Shown: positions 3,060 through 62,506, counted from the first letter of the stretch. The stretch is 64,000 nt of DNA from Nannocystis bainbridge (GCF_028368995.1 NZ_JAQNDL010000003.1:1536001-1600000), one strand, 5' to 3'. Numbers and translations: made by a program. The notes: generated by a model from the letters alone, not told the origin.

Positions 3060-3618
3060 GCGCCGACGAATTCCGGGTCCATCGTCCCACGAGGATCGTC
3101 CAGACTCCGCGAATTCGCGGCCCGCGAATCATCCGACCGCGATGACCTGCGCCTCCGCCTCGCTGCGCGCCCGCCAATCGACGGAGTCGCCATTCGCATC
3201 GGCGCTGCTCCGCCCGTGCGGTCCCCGCGCCCGCGGTCTTCGGGCGCCATGTCTCGAAGGACAGCTGAACGGCGGCGATCACGCTTGTCGGAGCGCCGAC
3301 CGAGTCGCCTCGCGATCGCGTGTGCGGAATGACCAATGTCTGGCGCCCGCAGGGCCTGCGTTCGCCCCGGTGATTGCCGCGCATGTATGCTCGTTCACAA
3401 GATTTGCTCGCCGACGCGATCGCCGACGCGGCCCCGCGAAAACGCGCAGCGGTGGGCCCAGGGCCCGTGATGCGGCTGCGGACTGAACATTCGCTCCTGG
3501 TCGTTGCATCGGCAAGTTCACCCCAGCGGCAGGCCCCATCTGGGGCTCTTGCGGCGTGTTCTGCCTCATGCGCGATTGCGCGCCCCACGCGGTTTTGCCG
3601 GCGTATCCTCGCGTCCGG

Positions 3619-5028
3619 ATGCTTCCCCGTGTGCGCCGCGACGACACCACTCTCGAGCGCCAGCTGTGGCTCGCGGCCAACAAGCTCCGGCATCACCTCG
3701 ATGCGGCGGCTTACAAGCACATCGTGCTCGGGCTCGTATTTTTGCGCTGGGCCTCGAGCAGCTGGCCGGCGATCACCGCCGCGAGCAGCAGCCCCGACCT
3801 GGGCAAGCGCCTCGACGACGCGCTGCTGGCCCTCGAGCGCAGCGACGTCGCGCTGCACGGCGTGCTCACCCCTCGCTACGAGCGCTCGGGCCTCGACCCC
3901 GCCTGTCTCAAGGAGCTGGTCGGTCTGGTCGGCAGCGTCGACATCGCCGGCGACCGCGACCTGCTCGGGCGGATCTACGAATATTTCCTCGCCGAGTTCG
4001 CCAGCGCCGAGGGCCGCAAGGGCGGGCAGTTTTACACCCCGCGCGGCGTCGTCCAGCTGCTCGTCGCCATGCTCGCCCCGCGGTCCGGGCGCGTCTACGA
4101 CCCCTGCTGCGGCAGCGGCGGCATGTTCGTGCACAGCGCTCACGCCGGCATCAATCTGTTCGGACAGGAGTCGAATCCGACCACCTGGCGGCTGGCGAAG
4201 ATGAACCTCGCGCTGCGCGGCTTGCAGGGCGACCTCGGCCCCGGGCCCGGCGACACCTTGCGCCGCGACCTCCACCCCGACTTGCGGGCCGAGTACATCC
4301 TCGCCAACCCGCCGTTCAACGCCAGCGCGTGGGGCGAGCCGGACTCTGGCGATACCCGCTGGCGCTACGGCCAGCCGCCGTCGCGCTGCGCCAACTTCGC
4401 GTGGGTCCAGCACGTCCTGCATCACCTCGCCCCGCGCGGCGTCGCCGGGGTCGTGCTCGCGTGCGGCAGCCTGAGCTCGCGCCGCTCGGGCGAGGGCGAC
4501 ATTCGCCGCGCCATCGTCGAGGCCGACAAGCTCGACTGCGTGGTCGCCCTGCCGTCGCAGCTGTTCTACGCCACCTCGATCCCCGCCTGCCTGTGGATCT
4601 TCGCCGACGACAGGCGCGGCGGCGACGGCCGCTCGCGCCAGGGCGAGGTCCTCTTCGTCGACGCGCGCCACCTCGGCACCATGGTCACTCGCACCATGCG
4701 CGAGCTGTCGCGCGCCGACATCGAAGCGATCGCCGGCACCTATCGCGCCTGGCGCGGCGACTCCGAGGTCGCCGCGACCGAAGGCGAGCCGCCGCGACCG
4801 GTCGAGGTCGCCGGCTTCTCGCGCGCCGTCGACCTCGCCGAGATCGCGCGTCAGGAGTTCGTGCTCACGCCCGGGCGTTACGTCGGCGCTGCCGCCGAAC
4901 CGGCGCCCTCCGAGCCCTACGCCGAGCGCATGCGACGGCTCGCCGGGACGCTCGACGCCCAGCTCGTCACCGCCGCCGAGCTCGATCGCAAGCTCCGCGA
5001 CCTCGTGCGGGAGCTCGACCATGAGTGA
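3619..5028 (+). CDS. hsdM: Type I restriction-modification methyltransferase subunit (m6A)
   Basis: LWxAANKLR N-terminus, GQFYTP, VYDPCCGSGG (SAM binding), catalytic NPPF, C-terminal LTPGRYVG. Start is approximate. Confidence 0.95.
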   Translation: MLPRVRRDDTTLERQLWLAANKLRHHLDAAAYKHIVLGLVFLRWASSSWPAITAASSSPDLGKRLDDALLALERSDVALHGVLTPRYERSGLDPACLKELVGLVGSVDIAGDRDLLGRIYEYFLAEFASAEGRKGGQFYTPRGVVQLLVAMLAPRSGRVYDPCCGSGGMFVHSAHAGINLFGQESNPTTWRLAKMNLALRGLQGDLGPGPGDTLRRDLHPDLRAEYILANPPFNASAWGEPDSGDTRWRYGQPPSRCANFAWVQHVLHHLAPRGVAGVVLACGSLSSRRSGEGDIRRAIVEADKLDCVVALPSQLFYATSIPACLWIFADDRRGGDGRSRQGEVLFVDARHLGTMVTRTMRELSRADIEAIAGTYRAWRGDSEVAATEGEPPRPVEVAGFSRAVDLAEIARQEFVLTPGRYVGAAAEPAPSEPYAERMRRLAGTLDAQLVTAAELDRKLRDLVRELDHE

Positions 5029-6280
5029 GCGGCGCCTGAGCACCCTCGGCGCGCTCGGGCGCATCGTCATCGGCGGCACCCCGCCGGCCGACGACCCGGC
5101 GCATTTCGGCGGCCCGATCCCCTTCATCACCCCGACCGACCTCGACGGCCGGCGCAACATCGACGGGGCCACGCGCACGCTCACCGAGCTCGGCGCGCGC
5201 ATGATCGGCGCCTCGCGGGTGCCCAAGGGCAGCGTCCTCTTGACCTGCATCGGCGCCGACCTCGGCAAGACCGCCTGCACCGGCGTCGACGCTGCCATCA
5301 ATCAGCAATTGGCCGCCCTCGTCGTCGATCCGCCCAATTGCCCGCGCTACGTCTATTACGACCTGCGCGCTCGCCAGCGCGAGCTGCGGGCCGCCGCCGG
5401 CGGCTCGGCCCAGCCGATCCTCACCAAATCGGGGCTCGTGCGGATCCCCATCGTCTTGCCGCCGCCGCGCCGTCAGCAGGCGATCGTCGAGGCGCTCGGG
5501 GCCCTCGACGACAAGGTCGAGCTCAACCACCGCCTGTGCGTCACTCTGGCCGAGATCGCGGGCGCCCGCTTCCGGGCCCAGTTCGTCGACCTCGAAGCCC
5601 CGCCCGACTGGAAGCACGTCCGCCTCGGCGAGCTGTTCGACCTCGACAAGGGCCTGTCGTACCGCGGCGAACTGCTCGGCGACACCGGCATGCGCTTGCT
5701 CGGCCTCGGGGACTTCGGCGCCCGCCCCGAGCTCGACGCCGAGGACGTCCCGCGGCGCTACGGCGGCCGGCATCAATCACGGCACATGGTCGTCCCCGGC
5801 GACATCCTGATCGCCAACACCGACCTCACCCAGCGCCGCGAGCTGCTCGGCGCCCCGCTGCGGGTCCCTCACCTCGGCGAGAGTCCGGTGCTTTTCTCGC
5901 ACCACGCCTTCGCCGTGCGGTTTTTGCCTGGCCGCGAGGGCTGGCGCGAGTTCGTCTACTTCGCCCTCCAGCAGCCCGAGTTCCGCGCCCGCGCGGCCGG
6001 TTTCGCCTCGGGCACCACCGTGCTCGCGTTGCCGCGCGACGCCGTCCTCGATCACACCATCGCCCTGCCGCCCGAGCGGCTGCGCCAGGCCTTCAGCGAC
6101 GTCACGCGGCCGTTGCTCGCGCGCATCGACCACGCCAAGCAGGAGTCGCGCGCGCTCGTCGAATTGCGCGAGCACCTGCTCCCCGCGCTGGTCTCCGGCG
6201 CCCTCGCCCCGCCGCAATTCGGCGACTCGCGGCCCGTCTCTGAGCTCGCCCTCGACGCGATCGCCGACAGCCGACAATGA
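5021..6280 (+). CDS. hsdS: Type I restriction-modification specificity subunit
   Basis: Overlaps the hsdM stop. Two TRD-like halves (GGTP...GSAQP; GDIL...SGTT) with conserved-region motifs LPP..Q..I...L..LDDK.ELN and LREHLLPALVSG. Confidence 0.92.
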   Translation: MSERRLSTLGALGRIVIGGTPPADDPAHFGGPIPFITPTDLDGRRNIDGATRTLTELGARMIGASRVPKGSVLLTCIGADLGKTACTGVDAAINQQLAALVVDPPNCPRYVYYDLRARQRELRAAAGGSAQPILTKSGLVRIPIVLPPPRRQQAIVEALGALDDKVELNHRLCVTLAEIAGARFRAQFVDLEAPPDWKHVRLGELFDLDKGLSYRGELLGDTGMRLLGLGDFGARPELDAEDVPRRYGGRHQSRHMVVPGDILIANTDLTQRRELLGAPLRVPHLGESPVLFSHHAFAVRFLPGREGWREFVYFALQQPEFRARAAGFASGTTVLALPRDAVLDHTIALPPERLRQAFSDVTRPLLARIDHAKQESRALVELREHLLPALVSGALAPPQFGDSRPVSELALDAIADSRQ

Positions 6281-6334
6281 CGGTGGCAGGCGACCTGCCC
6301 GCAGTGTCCATGGCACGACGCGCGCAGGACGTAA

Positions 6335-7459: not shown

Positions 7460-7757
7460 CTCGCGACCTTACTCGAGCGGCTCGAACCCGAGAAGTCGCG
7501 GCCGCCGTGAAGTGCCGCCCAGGACCCGCGATTCGTGCGTCGCCTCGCCCGTGCGATCCGCATCACCCGGATGGCGAGAGCGCCGATCTGCCGCCGACGC
7601 CACCCGCGCGCCCCCCGCAGGCGCGCGCTCGCGGCCGCGAGGATTTGGACGAATCGGTCGCCGGTGCCTCGTGGCGGCGAGCGCTCGCCGCCGACCTCGT
7701 CACCTCTCGGGCGCCGCCTGCGACTCGGCGTACCTTCAGCGATGGAGCCTGATTGTC

Positions 7758-9473
7758 ATGTCTCGAGCGACAACGATCGCCGTCATGGCCCTCTGCGCCT
7801 GCGGTCGGCGCGGCGGCGACGGCGTCACCGATCCGGAGGCCGGCGCGACGAGCAGCCATCTCGCCGCCATCGGCGACCCGGGCAGCGGCGAATCGTGGAG
7901 CTTGAAGTCGCTGGCGCGCGGGGCCGTGTTGTTCGACGACCTCGGCGACCACCGCCGGCCCGTCACCACCCAATCACCCCAGGCGCAGGCCTTCTTCGAT
8001 CAGGGCCTCAACCTCCTCTATGGATTCAACCACGACGAGGCCGCGCGCTCGTTCGCCCGCGCCGTCGAGCTCGACCCGGGCTGCGCCATGTGTCTGTGGG
8101 GAGTCGCCTACGCGCTCGGCCCCAATTACAACATCCCGATGCTGCCCGACCGCGCCCACGCCGCCTGGGACGCCGTCACGCGGGCGCAGCAGCACGCGCA
8201 ATACGGGCGGCCGGTGGAGCTCGCGCTGGTGGCCGCGCTGGCGCGCCGGTTCAAGGGCTCCGACTACGCCCCGCCGGCCGAGATGCAGGTCTACAACCGG
8301 ATCTACGCCGACGAGATGCGCGACGTCGCCAGGCGATTCCCCGACGACCTCGACGTCCAGGTGCTGTTCGCGGAAGCGTTGATGAACGTCGAACCGTGGC
8401 GGCTTTGGAGCAACGAGGGCGTCGCGGCGCCGGGCACGCCGGAGATCGTCGAGACCCTCGAATCGGTGCTCGCGCGCGACGAATCGCACCCTGGCGCCAA
8501 TCATTTCTACATCCACGCCCTCGAGGCCTCGGCCCGGCCCGAGCGGGCGATCGGCGCCGCCGACCGCTTGCCCGCCTTGATGCCCGGGGCCGGACACATG
8601 GTTCACATGCCGGCCCACATCTATCAACGGGTCGGCCGCTACGGCGACGCCGCCGAGGCCAACCGGCGCGCGGTCCAGGTCGATCAGCGCTACCTCGCCC
8701 GCGTCGAGCCGATCGGCTATTACACGTTCTACCTGGCCCACAATTACGGCTTCCTCGCCTACGCCGCCGCCATGCTGGGGCGCAGCGCCGAATCGCTCGA
8801 GGCCGCGCGCAAGTCGGCCGAGCACATGCCGCGCGACATCGTGTGCGGCATGCCTGGCATGGACTTCTTCCTGGCCGAGCCGTTCTTCGTGATGGTCCGC
8901 TTCGGCCGCTGGGACGAGGTCTTCGGGGCCTCCAAGCCCGACCCGAAGCACCGCACCCTGGTCGCCCTGTGGCACCACGCGCGGGGCATGGCGCTGGCGG
9001 CGAACGACGAGATCGAGGGCGCCTACGCCGAGGCCATGCAGATCCGCGACATCTTGCGCGAGCTGCCCGACGATCAGCTCGCCGGCCTCAATCAGGGCAG
9101 GCGGGTGCTGCAGCTCGCGGCCGACGTGGTCGAGGCGCGCGCCGCCGAGGCCGAGCGTTCGCCCGAGGCGATCGCCCGGTGGGAGCGGGCCGTCGCGCTG
9201 GCCGACACCCTCGCCTACAACGAGCCCCCCGATTGGTTCTATCCGTTGCGTCACTACCTCGGCGCCGCCCTCCTCGACGCCGGGCGCGCGCGCGAAGCCG
9301 AGGCCGTCTATCGGGCCGACCTGGCGCGCCACCCCAACAACGGGTGGGCCTACTTCGGCCTGTGGAAGTCGCTGGCGGCGCAAAAGAAGAGGGCCGCCGC
9401 CAGGCGGGCCGAGCGCGACTACCACGACGCGTGGGCGTCCGCCGACTTCGAGCTCGAGCGGACCGCCTTCTGA
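7758..9473 (+). CDS. TPR-containing lipoprotein
   Basis: Lipobox-like ALCAC; AQAFFDQGL...FNHDEAARSF, HPGANHFYIH, HMPAHIY and YNEPPDW motifs typical of a widespread TPR family. Confidence 0.85.
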   Translation: MSRATTIAVMALCACGRRGGDGVTDPEAGATSSHLAAIGDPGSGESWSLKSLARGAVLFDDLGDHRRPVTTQSPQAQAFFDQGLNLLYGFNHDEAARSFARAVELDPGCAMCLWGVAYALGPNYNIPMLPDRAHAAWDAVTRAQQHAQYGRPVELALVAALARRFKGSDYAPPAEMQVYNRIYADEMRDVARRFPDDLDVQVLFAEALMNVEPWRLWSNEGVAAPGTPEIVETLESVLARDESHPGANHFYIHALEASARPERAIGAADRLPALMPGAGHMVHMPAHIYQRVGRYGDAAEANRRAVQVDQRYLARVEPIGYYTFYLAHNYGFLAYAAAMLGRSAESLEAARKSAEHMPRDIVCGMPGMDFFLAEPFFVMVRFGRWDEVFGASKPDPKHRTLVALWHHARGMALAANDEIEGAYAEAMQIRDILRELPDDQLAGLNQGRRVLQLAADVVEARAAEAERSPEAIARWERAVALADTLAYNEPPDWFYPLRHYLGAALLDAGRAREAEAVYRADLARHPNNGWAYFGLWKSLAAQKKRAAARRAERDYHDAWASADFELERTAF

Positions 9474-12474: not shown

Positions 12475-12482
12475 ATCATCGC

Positions 12483-12668
12483 TGTCCCCGAGGACATTTT
12501 TTACAAAGGACATTCCCGAATCGCCGGATTCGGCACCGCGCTGGCGAACCGTCGACACCCGACGATGACGCGCCGATCGGTGAACCCCTCGAGGCGCCGT
12601 CACCGGCGCACACGGACATGTCCCCGCGGACATGTCCGTGAATCACCACTGACATGTCCCTACGGACA
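12483..12668. repeat. Cluster of 14-bp-period GACATGTC units
   Basis: TGTC-N6-GACA at 12483. GACATGTC at 12615, 12629 and 12651, then GACA at 12665. Bases 12611-12640 form a near-perfect palindrome. Confidence 0.9.
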
Positions 12669-12670
12669 GC

Positions 12671-13651: not shown

Positions 13652-14607
13652 GGCGATGAATGACCCCGCTGAGAGGCGCGGGAGTTCTATGCCATGAGAC
13701 GCACGGTGCAACGGCCCCGGCCTCGCGCTCGCTCGTGACATAACGATGCATCGCCCCCGCGATCCGCCGCCCGACGTACGCCGCTGGCCGCACCGCCGCG
13801 TACATCGGCGCCCTCGCCCGCGCCGCGATGAAAGGATGTCCTCGCAACAATGTCACGCGGATGTGACCGACCCCGCGCCGGTGATGCCGGCAAAAGCCGG
13901 CACCATGCCCGTTTACCGGAAGAACCTGTCCTTCGGGACATCTCCGTTCGACGCCCTTACACCTGCCCGGCCAAGTTCGCCGTCGACATGACGTCGCAAT
14001 CCTCACGGGACGAGGCCGCTCCGGCGACGGGCGAATGAACCCCGGCCTGGGCAAGCGACATGTCCCAAAAGACATGCACGCGCCGCGCGCCGATCGAGTG
14101 TCTATTTGACATCCACCTCGCTGCGAGCTCCGAGGAGCGGGAGCCCCCCCGGCTCTTCACATTAATATTCCCCCATGTTCGACCGCTCGCCCGCGGCGGC
14201 CAGCGAGACACCGTACCCGCGAGGTCCATGTCCCGGCTGGCTTGGGCTCATACACGACGCGCTCGGCCCGGGTGCGCCCGAGCCGACTTTTCGCTGACGA
14301 TCCGCGCGCCCGGTCGCGCGAGCGTGCGCGGATCGGGGCCTTCCCGCCGCTGCTGTTCATCGCCACGATCGAGCGCGAGCGCCGACAGATCGGTCACGCC
14401 GACGGGGCACTCCCATGGCCGCGATCCATCACCACATACAGTGGTGTCATGGTCGACTCGCCCGGCCGAGCCGCCGCACGCAAGGCGCTCACGCTCGCCG
14501 CGTCGGCTCCGGTGCTCGAAGGACTCGGGGCTCGTCCGCGAGCCCGCCCTCGGAACACCCGCTCTCTCCTACCGAGCCGCGCGAAACCGTCCTGGCGCTC
14601 CCCCCGC

Positions 14608-14673: not shown

Positions 14674-15255
14674 GTGACCGTCCGAACCGAACAGAAAGAG
14701 CGCACCCGGCAAGACATCCTCGCCTCGGCGACTCGCCTGCTGCGCGAGCGCGGCATCGCCGGCGCCAGCGTGGCCGAGGTGATGAAGGGCGCCGGCCTCA
14801 CCGTCGGCGGCTTCTACGCTCACTTCGAATCCAAGGAGGCGCTGGTCTCCGCCTCGTTGCGGCAATCGCTGCACGAGCTGTGGAGCGGCCTGGTCGCCGG
14901 CGCCGGCAAGCTGCGCGGCGTCGAGGCGGTCTCCTACGTGGTCCGCCGCTACCTCTCGCGCGCCCACCGGGACAACCCCGGCGAGGGCTGCCCGCTGCCG
15001 GCCGTGGTCGCCGACGTGGCGCAGGCCGGCGAGGCCGTGCGCGAGGGCCTGGCCCACGAGCTCGGCGATTACGCCGACGCGCTCGCCGCTTGCATCACCG
15101 ACGACACCGCCGCCAGTCGTCAGCGCGCGCTCGCCCTGTTGTCCCTCATGTACGGCGGCCTCAGCCTCGCGCGCGCCCTCAAGGGCACCCCCGTCTCCGA
15201 CGAGATCCTCAAGTCCTGCCGCGATTTCGCGCGACAGGCGTTCACCAACGAATAG
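14674..15255 (+). CDS. TetR/AcrR family regulator
   Basis: TRQDILASA...GIAGASVAEVMKGAGLTVGGFYAHFESKEAL and GCPL. GTG start after GGAGG. Confidence 0.95.
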   Translation: MTVRTEQKERTRQDILASATRLLRERGIAGASVAEVMKGAGLTVGGFYAHFESKEALVSASLRQSLHELWSGLVAGAGKLRGVEAVSYVVRRYLSRAHRDNPGEGCPLPAVVADVAQAGEAVREGLAHELGDYADALAACITDDTAASRQRALALLSLMYGGLSLARALKGTPVSDEILKSCRDFARQAFTNE

Positions 15256-15273
15256 TCCCGGAGGACATGTATC

Positions 15274-16509
<1,236 letters not shown>

Positions 16510-17796: not shown

Positions 17797-18729
17797 CTAT
17801 CTCCGGCGCATCACCGCGAACAGCTCCTGGCCGTGGCGGATCAGCGTCGACCCCTGCGCCACCGCCAGCTGCTCGATCGTGAAGCGCGGCGCGAACCGGC
17901 GCTCGACCTCGGCGCGGTCGGTCGTGAACGGCGGCCCGCCCGGGCGGCCGTGGGCGTAGAACAGCCCCACCAGCAAACCGCCGGGCTGCAGCGAATCCGC
18001 CACCGCCGTCACGTAGTCGTCGCGGCGGGCCGGATCGATCGCGCAGAAGCAGGTGTGCTCGACCACCAGGTCGAACGCCGGGGGCGAGCCCATGCGCGCG
18101 AACAGGTCCGCCACCGCGAACGCGATCGTCAGCTCCGGCGGCGTCATCGCCTGCGCCTGTGCGATCGCCGTCGGCGCCAGATCGATCGCCGTCACCGTCG
18201 CCCCGAGCCGCGCCAACAGCCGCGCCTCGTGCCCGCGGCCGCACCCGGGCACCAATGCTCGCATGCCCTCGGGGACATGTCCCGAGAACCATGTCACAAG
18301 CGGCGGCGCGGCCCGCCCGAGCTCCCAGCCGCCGGCGTTCGCCACGAACAGCGGGTCCCAGAACCTGGCCTCGCCCGGCCCGGCGCCAGCGACATCGGGC
18401 GCGCGCACCAGCAGCTCGCCGCGGATCGCCCGGGCCACCGGCGCGACCAGGTCGACCAGCGCCTCGAACTCCGCCGACGTCAGCCGCAGCCCCGGGTTCG
18501 CCGCGTCGGCCCGTGACAGCGTCGCCTGGCGGGCGAACGCATCGACCGCCAGCGCGCGCACCGGCGCCCCCGCCTGCCGCTCGAGCGCCGCCCACAGCGG
18601 CTCCGCGACCGCGTCGACCCGCGCGTAGGCCTCGCCCTCGAGGTCGCGGCCCTGCTCGCCGCGGGCGCCGACGACGACCGCGCGCACGTGATGGTCGGGT
18701 CGATGGAGCTTGAACGAACGGAGGTCCAC
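17797..18729 (-). CDS. TPMT/halide-methyltransferase-like SAM-dependent methyltransferase with N-terminal extension
   Basis: FWD....GGWELG, LVPGCGRGHE, EHTCFCAIDP and GGPPF. Start codon uncertain. Confidence 0.85.
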   Translation of the reverse strand: MDLRSFKLHRPDHHVRAVVVGARGEQGRDLEGEAYARVDAVAEPLWAALERQAGAPVRALAVDAFARQATLSRADAANPGLRLTSAEFEALVDLVAPVARAIRGELLVRAPDVAGAGPGEARFWDPLFVANAGGWELGRAAPPLVTWFSGHVPEGMRALVPGCGRGHEARLLARLGATVTAIDLAPTAIAQAQAMTPPELTIAFAVADLFARMGSPPAFDLVVEHTCFCAIDPARRDDYVTAVADSLQPGGLLVGLFYAHGRPGGPPFTTDRAEVERRFAPRFTIEQLAVAQGSTLIRHGQELFAVMRRR

Positions 18730-18783: not shown

Positions 18784-19587
18784 ATGGAGCTCCACGACCT
18801 CCTCGCTCGCCTGTGGCGCGACTACGCCGCCTTGAACCCGCAGGTCGAGCGGGTCGGCGCCCTCCTTGCCGGGGCCGGCGAGCGCGTCGTCCACGACCAC
18901 ATCGCCCTGCGCACCTGGGGCGACCCGCGCTGCGACATCGAAGCGCTGGCGCGCCCGTTCGTGCGCGCCGGCTACCGCGCCGCCGGGGCCTACCGCTTCG
19001 CCGAGAAGCGCCTGGTCGCCCGCCACTTCGCCCACGACGACCCCGCGCTCCCGCTCGTCTTCATCAGCGAGCTGATCCTCGCCGAGTTCTCGCCTGACCT
19101 TCAGGACAGGGTGAGATGTCTCCTCGAACAGGTCCCCGAGGACATGTTCCAGGCGCCAGACCTGTGCGCGCGCGGCCGCCCGTGGAGGGTCGCCCACGCC
19201 GAGGTCGAGGCCCTGCGGCGCGAGAGCGAGTACGCCGCCTGGCTGGCCGCGTTCGGCTGGCGGGCCAACCACTTCACCGTCGCCGTCCACGAGCTCGCAA
19301 ACCTGTCCGAATTGCCCGCTCTCGACGCCTTCCTCGTCGCCCACGGCCTGCGCCTCAACACGGCAGGCGGCGAGATCAAGGGCTCGCCGGCGCAGGGCCT
19401 CGAGCAGTCGTCGACCCTGGCCGACGTCGTCGAAGTCGAATTCAGCGACGGCACCTTCGCCGTGCCCGCCTGCTACTACGAGTTCGCGCGCCGCTGGCCC
19501 GGCCCCGACGGCCGCCAGTTCCGCGGCTTCATCGAGGGCTCGGCCGACAAGATCTTCGAGAGCACCGACCGGGACTCCGCGTCGTGA
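18784..19587 (+). CDS. DUF1338 family protein (2-oxoadipate dioxygenase/decarboxylase-like)
   Basis: HDHIALRT, ESEYAAW, NHFT, LEQSST and YYEFARR. Confidence 0.88.
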   Translation: MELHDLLARLWRDYAALNPQVERVGALLAGAGERVVHDHIALRTWGDPRCDIEALARPFVRAGYRAAGAYRFAEKRLVARHFAHDDPALPLVFISELILAEFSPDLQDRVRCLLEQVPEDMFQAPDLCARGRPWRVAHAEVEALRRESEYAAWLAAFGWRANHFTVAVHELANLSELPALDAFLVAHGLRLNTAGGEIKGSPAQGLEQSSTLADVVEVEFSDGTFAVPACYYEFARRWPGPDGRQFRGFIEGSADKIFESTDRDSAS

Positions 19588-21082: not shown

Positions 21083-21083
<1 letters not shown>

Positions 21084-21146
21084 GGCTGTCCTGCGGGGCA
21101 TGTCCCCGAGGACCTGCGCCATCGGGCATGTCCTCACGGACATGCC
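21083..21146. repeat. Five-unit 14-bp-period GACATGTC-like array
   Basis: Units start at 21083, 21097, 21111, 21125 and 21139. Confidence 0.88.
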
Positions 21147-21153
21147 CCTTCGT

Positions 21154-22225: not shown

Positions 22226-22549
22226 GTGAGCCTGACCCAGATCAGCTACTTCGTCGCCGTCGCCGAGGAGCAGCACGTCGGTCGCGCGGCGCAGCGGCTG
22301 CACGTCTCGCAGCCGCCCGTGACCCGGCAGATCCACCAGCTCGAGGACGAACTCGGCACTCGCCTGTTCGACCGCACCCCTCGCGGCGTCCGCCTCCTGC
22401 CCGCCGGCGAGCGCTTCCTCGCCCACGCCCGGGCGATCCTCGCCCAGGTCGACGCTGCCCGCCGGGCCGTCTCCGGACCTGCCTCGAACGACATGGACGA
22501 TGGGACATGTGCTTCGAGCCATGTCCCGAACGCTCTCGGCCGTGACTGA
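22226..22549 (+). CDS. LysR-family HTH-only protein (no effector domain)
   Basis: YFVAVAEE..VGRAAQRLHVSQPPVTRQIHQLEDELG..LFDR; the ORF stops after the linker helix (107 aa). Confidence 0.8.
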   Translation: MSLTQISYFVAVAEEQHVGRAAQRLHVSQPPVTRQIHQLEDELGTRLFDRTPRGVRLLPAGERFLAHARAILAQVDAARRAVSGPASNDMDDGTCASSHVPNALGRD

Positions 22550-24341: not shown

Positions 24342-25106
24342 GCACCCAGCTTACCACCGCCGCGGCGGCTCGAAAAGCTCCTGCGTGCCCCGGCCCGGTG
24401 CCCGCCGAGCCGGCCGCGCGTGCTCCCGCTCGGCTCGTCTCTCCTCCCGGGCGACCATGGGAACCCCGCCGATGCGCCCTCGGTCTCGCGCTCACGCCGA
24501 TGCTCCTGTACTCCCCCGCGCACCGACGCCGGCCATCTCACGCGATTGTCCATTCCCTACACAACTCATAGACATGTCTCAAAGGACATATCATCATTGC
24601 TTCAATCACGCGAGCAACCCAGCCGCGCCACGAAGCCCGCCCTCCGGCCAGCTCTCGGCTCGACCTCACGGCCCCGCGGCTCGACGAAGACGGCAGCGTG
24701 CACGGACCGGAAGCCCGTCGTCCGTAGCCCGATCTCCCAGGCCGCCGAGCATCCCGTCGTCATGGTTTCTGAGTCGCTCGTCGTCCGCCAGCTGCACCCC
24801 GGGGCGCGTCTTCATCCGGCCGAGCCAAAACACACGCCGAGCAGGCGAGCGTGGCGCTCGTGCCGACGCCGTTCGCGCGCACGCGGTCGTCCGCCGTTTC
24901 GACGCCATCTTCGCGCTGCGGCGGGCGCGTCGCCGTCACGTCACCTGCCTCAACCTCGCGTTTGCCGCTCTCCTCGCTCACGACCTCGCACCACCCCTTC
25001 ATCGGTCGACCGCGTTCGCAAGGGCTTCCTCTGGTAAAAGCACGCACCGAGCCCGGGCTCCGCATGCTCGTCCGTCCGGGCCTCGCCTTGCTCTCGACAG
25101 GTGCCC

Positions 25107-25865: not shown

Positions 25866-25905
25866 CGGCGGCCCTGCCGCTCGCGGAGCTCCCGCGCAAT
25901 CCACC

Positions 25906-25927
25906 GACATGTCCTCGCGGACATGTC
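25906..25927. repeat. GACATGTC-N6-GACATGTC doublet
   Basis: Two exact octamers at 25906 and 25920, between convergent genes. Confidence 0.9.
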
Positions 25928-25928
25928 C

Positions 25929-26816
25929 TCATGCATGCGGCGTCGCGGGCAGCACCAGCCCGCGCTCGCGCGCCAGCCGATCGGACAGCTCCCAGGTGCG
26001 CCGCGCCAGCTCGGCCTCGAGACATAGCGGCGTCGGCTCGAAGCGCCCGGGGTCGAAGCAGATCGCCCCGTTCGCCGGTCGGGCATCCGCCATCGTCAGC
26101 AGCCGCACCACGTTGGCCGCCGAGCGCTCCGTCGAGGCCCCGAACAGGCGATACAGCGCGCGGATGAACCACGGCCACTCGCGCGCCGTGTCGGTGCGGG
26201 TCATGCCGACGCAGGCGATGCTCGCGGTGACCGGCAGGTCGCGCCAGCGCTGCGCTGCCGCTTGCACGTGCAGGTAGCCCAGCACCTGCGACGACATCAG
26301 CGCCGCCAGCAGCCGCCAGCGGCGGCGCTCGAACTGCAGATCGTCGAGGTCGGGCACCAGCCCTGCCGGCGCCTTCGCCCCCACGTGCACGACGCGCCCG
26401 TCGCCCGAGCGGGCCAGCTGCGCCAGCGCTCCGCGGTTGAGCGCGTAGCGGGCCAGGTACTGCAAGGCGAACGCGCGCTCGAACCCGTCGGCCGTGTCGA
26501 CCCGCCGCATCGACGCCGTCATCGCCGTGTGCACCAGCCCGTGCAGCGCCGGTCGCCACCCCGCGATCGTCTCGATCGCCCGGCCCACTCCCGCCATCGT
26601 CGTGAGGTCGGCCGCGCGGTACTCCGCCACCGCAGCCCCCGCCGCGCGTACCGTCGCCGCCGCTCGCTCCCCGCGCTCGCCGTCGCGCCCGAGCAGCAAG
26701 ATCGCCGCGCCCCGGCGGGCCATCGCCGTGGCCGCCGTCAGCCCGATCCCCGCCGTCCCGCCGCTGAACACGAAGTTGAGGCCACGGACCCGTCGCTCGT
26801 CTTTCATCACGTCCAT
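25929..26816 (-). CDS. Short-chain dehydrogenase/reductase (atypical)
   Basis: SGGTAGIG Rossmann motif and TADGFERAFA; the canonical YxxxK is not evident. Confidence 0.8.
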   Translation of the reverse strand: MDVMKDERRVRGLNFVFSGGTAGIGLTAATAMARRGAAILLLGRDGERGERAAATVRAAGAAVAEYRAADLTTMAGVGRAIETIAGWRPALHGLVHTAMTASMRRVDTADGFERAFALQYLARYALNRGALAQLARSGDGRVVHVGAKAPAGLVPDLDDLQFERRRWRLLAALMSSQVLGYLHVQAAAQRWRDLPVTASIACVGMTRTDTAREWPWFIRALYRLFGASTERSAANVVRLLTMADARPANGAICFDPGRFEPTPLCLEAELARRTWELSDRLARERGLVLPATPHA

Positions 26817-35850: not shown

Positions 35851-37284
35851 ATGTCTCGCGCGCGCTCGCTCGTGGTCTCGCTCGTCGCCCTCACCGCCTG
35901 CAACGAATCGGCGAGCCCGCCGACGACCGGCACCGACAGCACCACGGCCGCGACCGACCCTGGCACCGCGGCCACCGACGCCAGCACCGACGGCCCCGCG
36001 ACCGCGACCTCGACCGGCGATGAGCCGACCACCACCTCGCCGACCGGCACCACCGGCGAGCCCGCGGGCCCGACCTACTACCGCGACATCAAGGCGATCC
36101 TCGACGCCAAGTGTGCCACTTGCCATCGCCCCGGCGACATCGCCCCGTTCTCGCTGACGAACTACGACGAGGCCGGCATGTTCGCCAAGATCCTCGGCCC
36201 CGCGATCGAGGACCGCACCATGCCCCCGTGGCCGCCCGGCGCCGACTGCAATCAGTTCGCCCACGACCGCGGCCTCTCGGACGGAGAGCGCGAGCTGGTG
36301 CTCGCGTGGATCGCCGCCGACGCGCCCGCGGGCGACCCGGACGACGCCCCGCCGCCGGTCGACGACGACGCGCCGCCGATCGCCTACGACGTGCAGATCG
36401 GGATCTCCGAGCCGTTCACGCCGGCGGAGGGGCTGGCCGACGATTATCGCTGCTTCCTGCTCGACTGGCCCAAAGACCAGGAGACCTACGCGACGGCCTT
36501 CACGATCGAGCCGGGGGCGCGGGAGATCGTGCATCACGTGATCGCCTTCATCATCCCGCCGGACGAGCTCGCGGAGTTCGAGGCGCTCGACGCCGCCGAC
36601 CCCGGGCCCGGTTATCCGTGCTACGGCGGCCCCGGCGGCGAGGCCAGCCCGCGCGCGCAGTGGCTCGGCGCGTGGGTCCCGGGCGCCAGCTCGGGCGCGC
36701 TGCCCGAGGGCACCGGCATCCGCGTCAAGCCCGGCTCGAAGATCGCCATGCAGATGCACTACCACCCGAACGGGGTCCCGACCGCCGACCAGTCGACGAT
36801 CATGGTCCGCACCGCCGACACCGTCGCGCGCCCCGCCCTGCTGCTGCCGGTCGCCCACCCCGGCTGGATGGTCGACGCCCCGCCCATGACGATCCCCGCC
36901 GGCGAGGCCGACGTCATGCACTCGTTCACCATCGACCTCGGCTCCATCATTCAGTACCTCTACAAGGACGAGGCGATCGGCGTCGGCAAGCCGATGCTGG
37001 CCCACATGGCCGGCGTGCACATGCACACCCGCGGCGCCCGGGCCAGCCTGGCCGTCGAGAGCGGCGGCGCCCCCGAGGCCTGCCTCGTCGACGTACCCCG
37101 CTGGGACTTCAACTGGCAGGGCATCTACGAGTTCGCCGCGCCGATCACCGTCGAGCCGTCCGACGTCGTCCGCCTCGAGTGCCACTTCGATAATTCCGCG
37201 GGCGACTCCGCGATCAAGTGGGGCGAGGGCACCGGCGACGAGATGTGCCTCGGCATGATCTACGTCAGCACCGACGCCCCGTGA
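35851..37284 (+). CDS. Lipoprotein: c-type haem plus copper type II (PHM/DBH-like) monooxygenase
   Basis: Lipobox LTAC, CATCH, MPPW, and candidate Cu ligands IVHH, QMHY, HMH and DEMC. Confidence 0.85.
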   Translation: MSRARSLVVSLVALTACNESASPPTTGTDSTTAATDPGTAATDASTDGPATATSTGDEPTTTSPTGTTGEPAGPTYYRDIKAILDAKCATCHRPGDIAPFSLTNYDEAGMFAKILGPAIEDRTMPPWPPGADCNQFAHDRGLSDGERELVLAWIAADAPAGDPDDAPPPVDDDAPPIAYDVQIGISEPFTPAEGLADDYRCFLLDWPKDQETYATAFTIEPGAREIVHHVIAFIIPPDELAEFEALDAADPGPGYPCYGGPGGEASPRAQWLGAWVPGASSGALPEGTGIRVKPGSKIAMQMHYHPNGVPTADQSTIMVRTADTVARPALLLPVAHPGWMVDAPPMTIPAGEADVMHSFTIDLGSIIQYLYKDEAIGVGKPMLAHMAGVHMHTRGARASLAVESGGAPEACLVDVPRWDFNWQGIYEFAAPITVEPSDVVRLECHFDNSAGDSAIKWGEGTGDEMCLGMIYVSTDAP

Positions 37285-37318
37285 CATGTCCCTTTCGACA
37301 TGCTCCTCGGGGCATGTC
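37283..37318. repeat. Three-unit 14-bp-period GACATGTC-like array
   Basis: GACATGTC at 37283, GACATGCT at 37297 and GGCATGTC at 37311; begins in a stop codon. Confidence 0.88.
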
Positions 37319-37408
37319 GTGAGGGCCAGCCGACCGCCGCGCCCGCGCGCGGACGCACGAGCCCGGCGGCTGCGGCGGCGGGCGCGAGCGGTTATACTCG
37401 CCGGCGGC

Positions 37409-44468: not shown

Positions 44469-45649
44469 TCACTTAGTTCCCCCGCGCCCTCTCTTGCGAG
44501 GTGGCGGGGGCGGTGTCTCCGATAAATTGTTACTTGTGGCTCGGTCTACAATGGTATTCGCAGGCCCTAGTGCTGAGAAAATTTGCTGCTGAGCCCGCAT
44601 CGCGGCCGCTTCCAGTACTTTACTCAATGTTCGCTGTCGATCGCCTTTTGCCCGCTGATAACTCTTCTTAAATTCACCATCCGTACCGCGCTCCCAAAAT
44701 CTCTTCACAGAATAATAGAAATGCTGAGCAGACTCATCAGCGGCAAACCCAGCCTCAAATTCCACCTTAATCCCGTTCTTGCGCTCATCGATGGCAATCC
44801 ACGTCATTTCGCTCACAAAAAAACGAGACTCCGTAAAGCGCTTGTACTCCGGGGAGTGGTCAACTTTTCTTCCCGTTAGGATGATCTTCTTTACAGCAGC
44901 GGAAAAGTCTTCCTTAATGAGGTCTTCATCGCCCAGTTCATCTTCATTTGTTACGGACATACGGCTCCCTCGCACACTGAGGGTTTCGTGCATGTTGAAC
45001 CCTTCCATGTTGTGTCCGAGGTTGATGAAGAAGTTGGTACGAGATTCTGGATCCAGGATCGTCGAGAGATCAATAATAGTAGCGTTGACAGGCTCGCCCT
45101 TAGATTTCTGCAGACTTGCGACCATACTCTGAAGAATCTCTGTCCCACGATCTTGAGCACTGTGACGCACCTGAAGCCCAGAGCTGCTTTTCTCGATCTC
45201 GACCGAGACCTCACGCAAAGTCCTCTGAGCTAGGCGTGTCTTCCCAGGATCCACTTCCATATAGGTTGCGACAACGTGAAAGTGATTTTTGCCGGATTGC
45301 GCTACAGACCATTGCTCCCCCGCCGTTTCGGTTCTCTCTTCCTTCAAGAGATCCAGAACCGAACTTACCTCATCGATGGTGAAATCTCCAGCAATTGCCG
45401 CCATCGCACGCTTTCGCTACGTTCTAAAGTGCTAGTCTGGTCAAGAATTTCAGACAGCTGAATCCAGCTGTGCGACATGCGAGCAATCGCTGCAATGATC
45501 TGTTCGCGGCTATCCTCTTTGGGCAAAATAATTCCACGACCTTGGGCAAGTTGTAGCAGCCGTTGCTTGCCAAGCTTGGAAGAAAGCAAAAGATCCTTGA
45601 CGTCCTTATCGTCAGCAAAAATCATTCCTTCCGCAACTCGCTTACCCAT
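44469..45649 (-). pseudogene. Frameshifted low-GC gene, probable partner of the upstream nuclease (GapS4b-like)
   Basis: Two overlapping ORFs (45649-45365 and 45404-44469) join into one ~390-aa frame if one base is added at the T-run 45412-45414. The start overlaps the upstream gene's stop. Confidence 0.65.
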
Positions 45650-46610
45650 CGCGCCACCCCAGTTCCGTCTCATCAAACCTGCGCATAACGTCTGGCACAG
45701 ATCCGTAAGTGACCCGCTCCAGTCGCTCGCGCGGAAAATTATAAAAACGTGACGCGTACTGTACTTTCGCTCGCTCAAAGCGAGAGCGAGCATCCGACAT
45801 CGGCGACACAACGCGGACATTTATGGATGTCGACTTGTCTACCAAAAGCTGATGACGAAAAAAACTATCGAACAGGTAACCAAACTCTTCAGAAGTCCCT
45901 CCGTCTTGGCGGTACCAAAATGTATAGTGCACAGATTCGCCATTTCGAGACCTCATTGCAATCCAAGGCCCTGTCAGCATTTCGATACTTGCCGCTCGTG
46001 GTTCTGCGTCTTGAAGGCGAACCGAGACAAGTTCTGGATACCAGAAGCGGCAAAATTCCATACTTGGAAGGCCGCCATCTTGTCGCAACGTCTGCATGTC
46101 GCGCGCGATGCCATACAATGCCACGATTGACTGAGGTCCCAGCACCATGACCTTAGTGCGGGGAGGAAGCATAAAATCTGAAGGGTCCACTTCTGAAAAC
46201 AGACTGGTAAAAAGATCCTTCTCGTAGCTTAGCGAGTGATCATAAACGAACAGCATACCCGCGATGTTATTCTCGGCGATTTCCGCCACGTACTTCTCTT
46301 TCCAACCTGAGCCCCGACTCGCACATTTAATCGTATCGCACAGGTTATTCAACGCGCCCTTGATCTTTGCCTTCTGGATCGTTGACGCGGCATAGCTTTT
46401 TAGATCCGTAATGACATACACTTCGCGATCTCGATTATAGGGATCATCATATTTGAATACGACATCAGTCGGGTGCTCGTCGCGGTTATGGCTCTCGGTG
46501 ACACAAGCCCAGTGGCTATCAACGGGTCCAATCCTCTCCCATCCGAATCGCGAAAAAATCTCGGCCGAGATTTTTTCGGCCATGAGAGCGATATTGCTGG
46601 TTTCTCCCAC
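45642..46610 (-). CDS. Low-GC PD-(D/E)xK-like nuclease (GAPS4a-like)
   Basis: MGE.....AE......F..FGW, HPTDVVFKYDDPY, DLKSY and GMLFVY. GC is clearly lower than the flanks. Family call is from memory. Confidence 0.65.
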   Translation of the reverse strand: MGETSNIALMAEKISAEIFSRFGWERIGPVDSHWACVTESHNRDEHPTDVVFKYDDPYNRDREVYVITDLKSYAASTIQKAKIKGALNNLCDTIKCASRGSGWKEKYVAEIAENNIAGMLFVYDHSLSYEKDLFTSLFSEVDPSDFMLPPRTKVMVLGPQSIVALYGIARDMQTLRQDGGLPSMEFCRFWYPELVSVRLQDAEPRAASIEMLTGPWIAMRSRNGESVHYTFWYRQDGGTSEEFGYLFDSFFRHQLLVDKSTSINVRVVSPMSDARSRFERAKVQYASRFYNFPRERLERVTYGSVPDVMRRFDETELGWRDG

Positions 46611-54953: not shown

Positions 54954-54963
54954 CGCACCGCAC

Positions 54964-56988
<2,025 letters not shown>

Positions 56989-57130: not shown

Positions 57131-57186
57131 GAAATCACTCGAGATTTCGTCGCCGGATCCACTTACTTGCTGGCGACTAGCAAGTA
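57131..57186. promoter_or_regulatory. Two inverted repeats in the roxA/DUF3556 divergent promoter
   Basis: GAAATC-N6-GATTTC (57131-57148) and TACTTGCT-N7-AGCAAGTA (57164-57186). Confidence 0.55.
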
Positions 57187-57358
57187 TACAGATGGCGCCA
57201 TGGAGCGTCAAGCGGGCTCCATGGCGCGGTTTCGCCCGCCGAGAGTTCGCCGAGAGGTGCCCCGGTCGAGGCGTCGTGCGACCCCGCCTGAGGCCGCGAA
57301 TGCGGTGAATCGCCGGCTTCCACCCGGCCCGCGCGCGCGGCTATGATCGCGTGAATCG

Positions 57359-59041: not shown

Positions 59042-59256
59042 TTCACGCCACCTCTGGTCCGGAGGCACCTCGGGGGATCGGGCGCAGACGGGCCTGGGCA
59101 CGGCCCTGAGCGGGCATTGCGCGCGAACCGGCCCGCGGGCCGCATCGTGACTCACGTTCGGTCCGCTGAGCCGATCGCGCCGCCGCAGGCGGGCCGCGCA
59201 TCGATCGCCCGTCGCGCCGGGTCGAACCGCGCGGGCTCCAGTAGTACGCTCGCCGC

Positions 59257-61537: not shown

Positions 61538-61546
61538 TAAAATAAC

Positions 61547-62467
61547 ATGAGAGCCTTCGATCGATCTTCGTGCCTCTCGATGCTCGCGGCCTTACTCGTG
61601 GGCGCGGCTTGTTTCCCCGATGTCGAGCCGAACGTAAAATCCTTGCCGCGCTGCCACGCGGTCGCGCCGGTGTGCGGGGACGCGGGCGACGACGATTGCT
61701 GCGCCAGCGCGGCGGTCGCCGGCGGCGGGTTCGATCGCATCAACGACCCCGGCTTGCCGGCCACGGTCGCGGACTTCGAGCTCGACCGCTACGAAGTGAC
61801 GGTGGGCCGCTTCCGCCAGTTCGTGGCCGACTATCCGCGCAATCGCCCGGCGCCCGATGCCGGCGCGCACCCGCGGATCGAGGGCAGCGGCTGGCAGCCC
61901 GAGTGGGATGCGCTGCTGCCAGCGGACGCGGCGGCGCTGCAGGTGTCGCTGCAATGCGACGCCAACTTCCGCACCTGGACCGACGCGCCGGGCGAGGCCG
62001 AGGAGCTGCCGATCAACTGCGTGTCGTGGTACCTGGCGTTCGCGTTCTGCGCCTGGGACGAGGGCCGCCTGCCGACCGAGACCGAGTGGAACTACGCGGC
62101 CGCCGGCGGCAACGAGCAACGCTTGTTCCCGTGGGGCGCGGGCGCAGCGACGGCGGCGCGCGCGAACTTCGGCTGCGACACGGCCACGGAAGCATGCCCG
62201 CTGCCCGCGGTCGGCTCGACGCCGCAGGGCGACGGCAAATGGGGGCACGCCGACCTGGCCGGCAACGTGGCCGAATGGGTGCTGGATTTCCACGGGACGC
62301 TGACGCCCGAGTGCCGCGACTGCGCGATCTTGCAAGACGAGACGTTCGGCCGCGAGGCCCGCGGCGGCGACTTCGCCCACACCGAGATGGAGATGACGAC
62401 GACCTTCCGCATCGGCTACGCGGCCGACAGCGGGCAGACGTTCGTCGGCTTCCGCTGCGCCCGGTGA
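61547..62467 (+). CDS. FGE/SUMF1-domain lipoprotein
   Basis: Lipobox-like GAAC; LDRYEVTV, PINCVSW, RLPTETEW, DLAGNVAEW and GFRCAR. Confidence 0.9.
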   Translation: MRAFDRSSCLSMLAALLVGAACFPDVEPNVKSLPRCHAVAPVCGDAGDDDCCASAAVAGGGFDRINDPGLPATVADFELDRYEVTVGRFRQFVADYPRNRPAPDAGAHPRIEGSGWQPEWDALLPADAAALQVSLQCDANFRTWTDAPGEAEELPINCVSWYLAFAFCAWDEGRLPTETEWNYAAAGGNEQRLFPWGAGAATAARANFGCDTATEACPLPAVGSTPQGDGKWGHADLAGNVAEWVLDFHGTLTPECRDCAILQDETFGREARGGDFAHTEMEMTTTFRIGYAADSGQTFVGFRCAR

Positions 62468-62484
62468 TGGTGGATTTTAAGAAG

Positions 62485-62506
62485 GACATGTCCGAATGGA
62501 CATGTC
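62485..62506. repeat. GACATGTC-N6-GACATGTC doublet
   Basis: Two exact octamers at 62485 and 62499, between convergent genes. Confidence 0.9.

Follow-up and report, generated by a model that had tools for sequence, protein, structure and literature searches.

A genome-wide 14-bp interrupted palindrome in Nannocystis bainbridge, mostly in phased chains just past stop codons

Palindromic Sites in the Analyzed Window

The window analyzed is a 64,000-bp stretch (C2:1536001-1600000) of the genome of Nannocystis bainbridge (G000; 11,048,555 bp in 5 contigs, 71-72% GC), in which isolated dyads, short arrays and degenerate chains of a palindromic motif are found (Table 1), with gene positions here and genome-wide taken from our own crude GC3-based gene caller and not from a standard gene finder. 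All twelve exact TGTC-N6-GACA junctions listed in a first-pass annotation of this DNA (starting at 3250, 7759, 12483, 12619, 12655, 13927, 14061, 21129, 24575, 25910, 37287, and 62489) were recovered, compared with a mean of 0.64 in dinucleotide shuffles (maximum 3; 0/100 reaching 12). The sequence GACATGTC is present 11 times, versus 0.75 expected. Among the sites previously described as degenerate, those at 1600, 15254, 18264, and 19095/19131 match TGTCC-N4-GGACA at 9/10 positions, and the in-phase chains are readable at 13833-13862, 19095-19150, and 22476-22531. All five multi-unit arrays folded from the window are more stable than shuffled sequence (z between -3.6 and -5.2), and the single dyad at 12483 reaches a z of -2.2.

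Table 1. Motif units and arrays in the window, with positions counted from its first nucleotide.
Feature	Position	Strand	Remark
Single degenerate dyad	1600..1613	.	9/10 to TGTCC-N4-GGACA
Single dyad ATGTCT-CGAA-GGACAG	3246..3265	.	Tandem intergenic region
Single dyad	7755..7772	.	Exact TGTC-N6-GACA, 8/10 to 5+5 core
Exact dyad	12483..12496	.	9 nt past stop of + gene ending 12474; T run follows
Four-unit array, two full units, third without first G: GGACATGTCC-CCGC-GGACATGTCC ... GACATGTCC-CTAC-GGACAG	12613..12670	.	Adjoins stop of convergent - gene at 12671; RNA fold -30.4 kcal/mol, z -5.2
Degenerate in-phase chain, three units	13833..13862	.	
Exact dyad CTGTCC-TTCG-GGACAT	13927..13940	.	
Two-unit array CGACATGTCC-CAAA-AGACATGCAC	14055..14080	.	
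Degenerate dyad, 9/10	15254..15271	.	At stop of + gene ending 15255
Three in-phase units GCATGCCC-TCGG-GGACATGTCC-CGAG-AACCATGTCA	18260..18300	.	
Degenerate chain, three dyads at 8-9/10	19095..19150	.	
Five-unit array	21085..21148	.	Fills convergent intergenic region, stops 21083 (+) and 21154 (-); nested hairpin, -42.2 kcal/mol, z -4.7
Four in-phase degenerate units	22476..22531	.	
Two-unit array AGACATGTCT-CAAA-GGACATAT	24569..24592	.	
Two to three units CGACATGTCC-TCGC-GGACATGTCC-TCAT-GCATGC	25904..25929	.	Between convergent stops 25865 and 25929
Four-unit array	37281..37330	.	Begins within stop codon of + gene ending 37284
Two-unit array GGACATGTCC-GAAT-GGACATGTCT	62483..62508	.	Between convergent stops 62467 and 62511

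Spacing, Copy Number and Phase of the Dyad

The motif had been proposed to be genome-wide and strictly spaced, and this is the case. When counting TGTC-Nk-GACA in the whole genome, 3663 matches are obtained at k = 6 and 984 at the in-phase k = 20, compared to 29-175 for every remaining spacer length up to 30; the inverse order, GACA-Nk-TGTC, gives 2237, 1305, and 645 matches at k = 0, 14, and 28, respectively. With the longer arms of TGTCC-Nk-GGACA, 1987 matches are found at k = 4 and only 0-16 at the other values between 0 and 11, so that N4 alone is used; the reversed pattern of TGTCC-N4-GGACA occurs three times. The excess over the reversed-pattern control amounts to about 10,460 sites in the genome, corresponding to approximately one per kb. 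Hence, the basic element is a 14-bp interrupted palindrome, TGTCC-N4-GGACA (5+4+5), and abutting dyads (GGACA/TGTCC) give rise to GACATGTC and to the unit GGRCATGYCC with a period of 14 bp.

Genome-wide, the units form 4942 arrays, the longest with 11 units, and in-phase neighboring units are detectable out to +/-84 bp. The fixed 14-bp register is kept over this length despite unrelated spacers, as had been noticed in the window, with identical adjacent spacers in just 75 of 1670 in-phase triples (22 expected). Some arrays with identical spacers are clearly recent tandem duplications, and others consist of eight units of the direct repeat GGACAGGYCC, which is not palindromic and thus unable to pair as a hairpin. 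The first-pass annotation had suggested a dimeric protein binding cooperatively every 14 bp; strict spacing, symmetry and phase indeed support a reading as duplex DNA, but as the period is already given by abutting 14-bp dyads it does not by itself show cooperativity. The exclusion of CRISPR arrays (repeats of about 23-50 bp with spacers of similar length) is upheld, considering the 10-bp unit, the 4-bp spacer and the thousands of dispersed short arrays. A LexA (SOS) box was likewise considered, the extended dyad reading CTGT-N8-ACAG, and rejected; upstream of lexA a GTTCAG-type box is found, which we take to be the Myxococcus LexA box, and no dyad.

Placement Relative to Genes

Concentration at gene 3' ends, previously described for the window, holds for the genome. 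Downstream of 5635 gene stops, 303-419 junctions are counted per 20-bp bin, versus 6-10 per bin within the 3' part of the genes; dyad density is far higher within roughly 100 bp past stop codons than anywhere else, and in about 1000 of 2246 genes the first unit begins between -2 and +22 nt relative to the stop codon. Where a tandem intergenic region spans at least 300 bp, the bins (30 nt) beside the upstream stop bear 108, 104, and 72 units, versus 29, 14, and 15 in those beside the following start. The share of intergenic regions with one or more units is 56% for convergent (714/1283), 27% for tandem (758/2787) and 18% for divergent ones (207/1139).

Coding sequence is enriched as well. Confident coding cores (5.18 Mb) contain 372 dyads (311 in a strict test) versus 2.2 +/- 1.0 in codon-order shuffles, an excess of about 150-fold. 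These dyads occur in all three frames and depend on rare codons ending in T or A; the peptides they specify are unrelated. Their enrichment indicates recognition of duplex DNA rather than an ordinary regulon, against which the annotation had already argued, or a plain terminator.

Symmetry, Hairpins and Terminators

Read in the sense direction of the upstream gene, the genome-wide base profile of the arrays is its own mirror complement, the motif being dyad-symmetric with respect to transcription. No T tract follows the arrays, the profile after the last unit mirroring that before the first, and the loop tetramers are free of sense bias (TTCG 25 versus CGAA 24). Variant bases, on the other hand, show a sense-strand bias of about 1.2-1.4-fold in addition to a stronger replication-strand bias, leaving room for an effect at the RNA level. 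In adjacent units, positions that would pair in a hairpin covary (odds ratios of 1.77-1.98, p between 1e-9 and 1e-13), compared to ratios of 1.0-1.2 for direct-repeat partners. Units 3 and 4 show no such covariation with unit 1, and departures from the consensus mostly lack a compensating change.

Canonical terminators with GC hairpin and T tract are present in the genome, many of the listed tRNA genes having one downstream, and a unit lies within 120 nt downstream of just 6 of 102 tRNA calls. Array and canonical terminator occur together in 399 of 4030 genes, which is near chance (about 330 expected), so the arrays do not visibly replace terminators. Where both are present, the unit mostly comes first (218 versus 86 cases with the terminator first), and these arrays would therefore be transcribed. 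Certain copies lie between A and T runs, resembling bidirectional terminators.

Taxonomic Range, Turnover and Partner Proteins

Enrichment of the dyad is found in three genera of one family, the Nannocystaceae, with 333-2090 dyads per genome in g1, the genus of G000, 87-169 in g2 and 67-295 in g4 (5/5 genomes enriched in each of the latter two). Background levels are seen in 13 of the remaining 14 genera of the family, g128 being marginal (6-20, control 2-7), and in 120 other Myxococcota genomes. Intergenic copies turn over fast: in the convergent intergenic region of array 21085..21148 and its orthologs the motif is present in 6/6 species, arranged differently in the five others, the region itself being unalignable between flanking genes of 90-98% identity. 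A coding dyad in an ABC-transporter gene of G013 is absent from the orthologs in a congener and two Nannocystis genomes, suggesting recent gain in this one case.

RAYT/Y1 transposase genes (PF01797) were found in 0/11 Nannocystis genomes, with 6 of 14 control genomes positive. Vsr (PF03852) was detected neither in G000 nor in 14 other genomes of g1, g2, and g4, while m5C methylase (PF00145) is lacking in G000 and present in 1/4 other g1, 0/5 g2, and 3/5 g4 genomes.

Discussion

A genome-wide dyad lying mostly in 14-bp-phased chains just past stop codons matches no described repeat system, and a so far undescribed factor reading it therefore probably exists. In our preferred reading, to which we give a probability of roughly 40%, a putative two-fold symmetric factor, conserved across the three-genus clade, would recognize TGTCC-N4-GGACA in duplex DNA, and the arrays would represent 3'-end barrier elements. 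Copies would build up over the whole chromosome, ORFs included, and most densely just past stops, where head-to-tail abutting dyads would result in chains with fixed register. There, the arrays may act as barrier or insulator either through the bound protein array or through transcript hairpins (10-bp stem, 4-nt loop), the latter being possible because neighboring units are complementary. The covariation of hairpin partners is not predicted by a pure duplex-binding model and is attributed either to genuine hairpin selection or to quasi-palindromes being corrected by template switching, and the more than 300 sites inside ORFs sit uneasily with a protein roadblock.

A reading absent from the first-pass annotation, which fits as well, is that of a DNA uptake signal. 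Here, a competence receptor would prefer the dyad, biased uptake and recombination would spread it, and pairs would be best tolerated, or co-opted as hairpins, just past genes. The DUS of Neisseriaceae and the USS of Pasteurellaceae show a comparable, about hundred-fold enrichment at approximately one site per kb in related genera, the same division between coding sequence and terminators, and hairpin-forming inverted pairs often just downstream of genes. In favor of this reading are the density of the dyad, its coding excess in all frames, the sharing of one word by three related genera whose copy numbers differ widely, the hairpin-forming pairs directly past genes and the recent gain in G013. 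Nevertheless, we regard this reading as rather unlikely, as known uptake signals are asymmetric 9-12-mers and not interrupted palindromes, uptake bias is not expected to yield phased arrays of as many as 11 units whose spacers are unrelated, and the gap between post-stop and coding density is far larger than for DUS and USS. Moreover, DUS and USS act via a competence receptor, and natural transformation is, as far as we know, not documented for Nannocystis.

A REP- or BIME-like palindrome without RAYT would have as its unit the stem-loop of two neighbors, in RNA or single-stranded DNA, spread by an undescribed enzyme or by recombination and stabilizing or ending transcripts. Like the REP/BIME and REPIN elements of Enterobacteria and Pseudomonas, the motif is short, conserved and palindromic, with thousands of post-gene, arrayed copies, a variable loop, fast intergenic turnover and partial hairpin-type arm covariation. 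In addition, strong folding, the recent tandem duplications, the copies between A and T runs and the position directly past stops, mostly ahead of a predicted terminator, are in favor of this reading. Strict REP, already excluded in the annotation, is out, given that RAYT is lacking in 11/11 genomes. The variable spacers and flanks cited there are a weak reason, however, since E. coli REP loops also vary, and the covariation keeps a REP-like component alive. Altogether, we consider this explanation improbable, because isolated dyads are enriched in ORFs, where a 3' hairpin would serve no purpose, and are thus not confined to extragenic space; because most variants are uncompensated and covariation is restricted to adjacent units; and because loops are fixed at a length of 4 without RNA-strand preference and the GGACAGGYCC arrays cannot pair. 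Furthermore, each arm is itself palindromic, direct and inverted repeats thus coinciding in a strict 14-bp register, and a single word is kept over three genera, whereas REP families generally differ between close species.

Very unlikely is a mere by-product of mutation, that is, 14-bp slippage and template-switch correction of quasi-palindromes with neither reader nor function. The identical-spacer duplications and the adjacent-arm covariation are expected from such processes, but these leave unexplained the occurrence of one particular word some 10,000 times, the strict N4, the excess of isolated dyads in ORFs against codon bias, the conservation over three genera and the pull toward stops within long intergenic regions. 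Ordinary intrinsic (Rho-independent) terminators sharing a stem sequence by chance would account for stable hairpins just past stops and between convergent genes, but this is hardly credible in view of the lacking U-tract with mirrored flanks, the canonical terminators past many tRNA genes rarely accompanied by units, the enrichment in coding sequence and the fact that a hairpin requires no conserved sequence.

Two further systems share traits with the dyad. HIP1 of cyanobacteria (GCGATCGC) is also a lineage-specific palindrome, hyper-abundant in coding and non-coding sequence and written against codon preference. In contrast to the dyad, it is contiguous and not known to be array-phased or tied to gene ends, and its proposed methyltransferase and repair connection has no counterpart here, with no Vsr in the motif-bearing genera and no m5C methylase in G000; to our knowledge, the function of HIP1 is not established. 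Head-to-tail palindromic boxes with fixed short period and no conserved linker, which the arrays resemble in appearance, are bound cooperatively by small dimers such as MetJ (metboxes) and omega repressor (heptads), albeit at a few promoter sites in a regulon and not at thousands of sites past stops and inside genes.

Going beyond our preferred reading of a two-fold symmetric factor with 3'-end barrier arrays, it is conceivable, though somewhat doubtful, that this clade of Nannocystaceae has a new sequence-reading system marking the whole chromosome. In one form, a small dimeric protein would polymerize in 14-bp register on gene-end arrays and insulate transcription units, serving as a protein-made terminator or roadblock and as a domain boundary. 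In the other, DNA uptake signals would have evolved independently a third time, here for the first time as a palindrome. If true in either form, the motif would offer a direct handle for fishing out the factor.

Results

The window contains 12 exact TGTC-N6-GACA junctions against 0.64 expected (maximum 3) in dinucleotide shuffles, and 11 copies of GACATGTC against 0.75 expected. The junctions are, position for position (12/12), those read by the first-pass annotation, and the degenerate chains that it had listed are readable as well (see table). The spacing scan that it had proposed, run on the whole N. bainbridge assembly (11.05 Mb, five contigs, 71–72% GC), peaks at k = 6, with 3663 TGTC-Nk-GACA sites there, 984 in phase at k = 20 and 29–175 at other values of k. 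The same register is seen for GACA-Nk-TGTC (2237, 1305, and 645 sites at k = 0, 14, and 28, all in phase) and for CATG-Nk-CATG (3736 at k = 10, otherwise 66–401 for k = 4–19), and it is sharpest for TGTCC-Nk-GGACA with 1987 sites at k = 4 and 0–16 at other k. When grouped by matches to the ten fixed bases of this 14-bp dyad TGTCC-N4-GGACA, 1987, 4258, and 7530 sites show 10, 9, and 8 matches, respectively, compared with 3, 161, and 3152 for the reversed pattern used as control, resulting in an excess of about 10,460 sites summed over 8–10 matches.

The position profile reads (GG)RCA-TGYCC-N4-GGRCA-TG(YCC) with four unconstrained spacer bases and can equivalently be described as a 14-bp dyad adjoining its neighbors or as a 10-bp palindromic unit, GGRCATGYCC, placed every 14 bp. 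Of these two, the dyad is primary, because it is commoner on its own, with 2477 of the 3663 junctions lacking an exact half-site next to them, is the form that occurs singly in a sister genus and is most enriched in coding sequence. In-phase neighbors are detectable to ±84 bp, and the 9235 units obtained by in-phase chaining form 4942 arrays, namely 2847 single units and 1100, 333, 297, 239, 88, and 31 arrays of two to seven units, besides seven arrays of at least eight. The longest, with 11 units, takes up the whole of a convergent intergenic region of 176 bp. As had been claimed at first reading, the spacers of an array mostly show no relation to one another; of 1670 triples, 75 have identical adjacent spacers (22 expected). 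Of 869 quads, 44 have a third spacer identical to the first, and 33 one identical to the reverse complement of the first (about 10 expected in each case), and a minority of arrays are evident recent tandem duplications. Two variant arrays on contig C3 consist of eight non-palindromic GGACAGGYCC units in one case and, in the other, of eight GGTCATGYCC units with seven CTGA spacers and one CCGA; hence, growth by local tandem duplication is possible and the 14-bp register outlasts loss of the central palindrome.

Gene positions were taken from a GC3-based ORF caller of our own (8708 calls covering 72–79% of each contig), a caveat for all placement numbers. For 5635 genes encoding 200 aa or more, 20-bp bins within the gene 3' end contain 6–10 junctions each, while the five bins past the stop hold 303, 419, 317, 268, and 204. 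Of the 2246 genes with an array within 300 nt, about 1000 have its first unit beginning at −2 to +22 nt relative to the stop. Tandem intergenic regions of at least 300 bp show units adjoining the upstream stop (108, 104, 72, and 48 per 30-nt bin) and only few near the following start (29, 14, 15, and 20). At least one unit (≥9/10 match) is present in 714/1283 convergent, 758/2787 tandem and 207/1139 divergent intergenic regions, which fits a chance of about 0.3 per gene 3' end. Post-stop bins and convergent excess thus bear out the location at gene 3' ends stated in the first-pass annotation, and independent strand inference from codon-phase GC gives 487 3'-only versus 214 5'-only sites, compared with 674 versus 621 for random positions. 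Localization relative to ori/ter, for which mapping had been proposed, is ruled out by a roughly even unit density along the contigs (32 ± 13 per 50 kb; rho = 0.54 versus GC). The window also holds a GC-poor island free of dyads within the 71% GC genome, encoding a two-gene candidate defense system without Pfam matches, the second gene of which is apparently split in two ORFs (see table).

The element is more than a plain terminator. When oriented by the upstream gene (sense strand), the array profile is its own mirror complement, and a T tract was not found downstream. Downstream space of 50 nt or more is available for 4030 genes. Of these, 1528 carry a unit, 869 a predicted hairpin plus T-tract terminator and 399 both, where about 330 would be expected under independence; units precede the terminator in 218 of these 399. 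Textbook GC hairpin plus T-tract terminators follow many of the listed tRNA genes (not tallied), and a unit lies in the 120 nt downstream of only 6 among 102 called tRNAs. The tRNA terminators often end in a recurring TTTGG(G)TC, which is not strongly over-represented across the genome (263 and 110 copies) and has its maximum 30–90 nt beyond the stop after protein-coding genes. Two dense tRNA arrays on contig C2, the spacers of which appear AT-richer than the genome, could represent a mobile-element or prophage tRNA island.

Confident coding cores (5.18 Mb from 4572 genes encoding 250 aa or more, trimmed by 150 nt per end) contain 372 dyads, compared with 2.2 ± 1.0 in codon-order shuffles and a single reversed pattern. 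A strict subset of 311 with in-frame GC3 of at least 0.85 on both flanks is distributed over frames 2, 1, and 0 with 173, 108, and 30 dyads, imposing rare T- or A-ending codons and encoding unrelated peptides; an abutting half-site accompanies only 46 of them. Enrichment of the 10-bp unit in the cores is about fivefold (165 versus 31). Accordingly, a 3'-UTR hairpin is insufficient as explanation, and the force acts on the DNA word itself.

For a hairpin component speaks that R3/Y8 and G2/C9 covary across adjacent units in the inverted sense only (odds ratios of 1.84, 1.77, 1.98, and 1.95; p between 1e-9 and 1e-13), compared with 0.98–1.23 for direct-repeat pairings and 0.55 inside a single unit, as well as folding much more stable than that of shuffles, with z from −3.6 to −5.2 for five multi-unit arrays and −2.2 for the lone dyad of 12483. 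Arguments against an element of structure alone are the mostly uncompensated deviations from the consensus, the lack of covariation of unit 1 with units 3 or 4, which also argues against nested long hairpins, the invariant loop length of 4, the lack of any sense preference found among loop tetramers and the occurrence of arrays of the non-palindromic variant. RNA-level selection via G-U wobble is disfavored, as the initial 2:1 sense-strand excess mainly tracks the replication strand and is also seen for non-wobble variants such as C>G, leaving a residual sense effect of about 1.2–1.4-fold. Variant bases in the motif show a two- to threefold replication-strand asymmetry favoring G and T on the G-rich strand, while that of adjacent non-motif intergenic bases is far smaller (K = 1.27 and 0.85).

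Dyad counts per genome are 333–2090 in Nannocystis, except for 114 in a 64%-complete MAG, and reach 87–169 and 67–295 in genera g2 and g4 (5/5 genomes each). Genus g128 is marginal (6–20; control 2–7), and both the other 13 genera in this family (0–10) and 120 other Myxococcota genomes are at control level. Multi-unit arrays are largely Nannocystis-specific, the g4 element being a single CTGTCC-N4-GGACAG. In sister-genus genome G011, de novo scanning of 400 kb revealed no other dominant dyad, and the whole-genome count gives a modest enrichment of TGTCC-N4-GGACA. Dyad placement in g2 and g4 gives no consistent picture: of the 23 sites in comparison genome G013, a crude method places 7 near a stop and 15 within stop-to-stop ORFs, while a second method assigns 8 to coding sequence and 5 to 3' ends. 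Such placement breaks down at the 61% GC of G011. In G013, an ABC-transporter gene contains a coding dyad that the orthologs of a congener and of two Nannocystis genomes lack, a single case with 2/6 rows misaligned. The convergent intergenic region of the window included in the table carries the motif in 6/6 species, with number, order and spacers varying, and is unalignable between species although the flanking genes are 90–98% identical. In a sister species (genome G007), the orthologous region additionally contains another repeat, about 60 bp long (core CACGGaCCCGCTTGCTCGCAGCG) and present in three copies, so that a second intergenic repeat family is present in the genus.

Features in the window and in related sequences (C1–C5, contigs of N. 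bainbridge; other coordinates refer to the window unless stated)
Feature	Location	Strand	Remarks
Degenerate chains	1600; 13833–13862; 15254; 18260–18300; 19095–19150; 22476–22531
Convergent intergenic region	21083–21153
Ortholog of 21083–21153 in G007	L009: ~2880–3050		CACGGaCCCGCTTGCTCGCAGCG repeats
GC-poor island	44469–46610	minus	~50% GC; 2.2 kb
Hp1 (PADLOC)	45642–46610	minus	E 1e-54
Hp2 (PADLOC), ORF	45365–45820	minus	E 1.8e-5
Hp2 (PADLOC), ORF	44469–45404	minus	E 1.8e-23
Variant arrays (one of each type)	C3:1054303–1054411; C3:1085839–1085947		Outside window
tRNA array	C2:2556665–2559233		~28 tRNAs; 2.6 kb; outside window
tRNA array	C2:2356727–2357509		7 tRNAs; 0.8 kb; outside window
TTTGG(G)TC, examples	C1:20972–21050; C1:1004619–1004692; C1:2344487–2344561; C3:1171397–1171470		Outside window
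recA	C2:671568–672356		E 1e-139; full length; outside window
recA	C5:151182–151967		E 2e-124; full length; outside window

Discussion

The most economical explanation is a candidate conserved factor of two-fold symmetry reading duplex DNA, because the geometry is strict and dyad-symmetric, the phase is kept although spacers are unrelated, ORFs are enriched in the element and three genera share one word. The arrays would serve as 3'-end barriers, as is suggested by the pull toward stop codons together with the hairpin covariation; this reading is tentative, with a probability of about 0.4. These data would also fit an uptake signal, the pairs of which settle after genes, and this we consider unlikely. 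Equally improbable is a REP-like element, likewise compatible with the data but operating without the REP-associated Y1 transposase (PF01797), which was found in none of 11 Nannocystis genomes. Vsr-driven short-patch repair is disfavored, as no Vsr was found in the motif-bearing genera, and LexA as reader is rejected because lexA itself carries a different box.

An m5C methylase was not found in N. bainbridge, the genome of which has two full-length recA genes (see table). The unit GGRCATGYCC is identical to a p53 half-site; a P53 domain search gave no match, but neither did its positive control. Within the window, no Rfam family reaches the gathering score. In viral contigs, the two-dyad pattern does not occur, and CATGTCC-N4-GGACATG is present in 102 of them, with one site each among the 80 listed, by rough estimate about chance level. 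The motif is absent from the searchable literature as far as its listings and the openings of abstracts go.

Hence, the feature is real and strong, and apparently undescribed so far. It joins the hyper-iterated short words known from genomes, such as REP, DUS/USS, HIP1, Chi, and KOPS, each of which has been a lead to chromosome biology; for HIP1, we know of no explanation to date. With about 10,000 copies and a sharp post-stop placement, it represents a very clean new case, in a group of little-studied predatory bacteria with large genomes rich in natural products. For myxobacterial engineering, the arrays are candidates for native insulator or 3'-end parts, as well as a hazard in assembly and PCR. 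The strict geometry makes spacer-length controls easy, and the three-genus distribution suits phylogenetic profiling for the reader protein. As the word is written into ORFs against codon bias, its putative reader puts measurable pressure on the whole genome.
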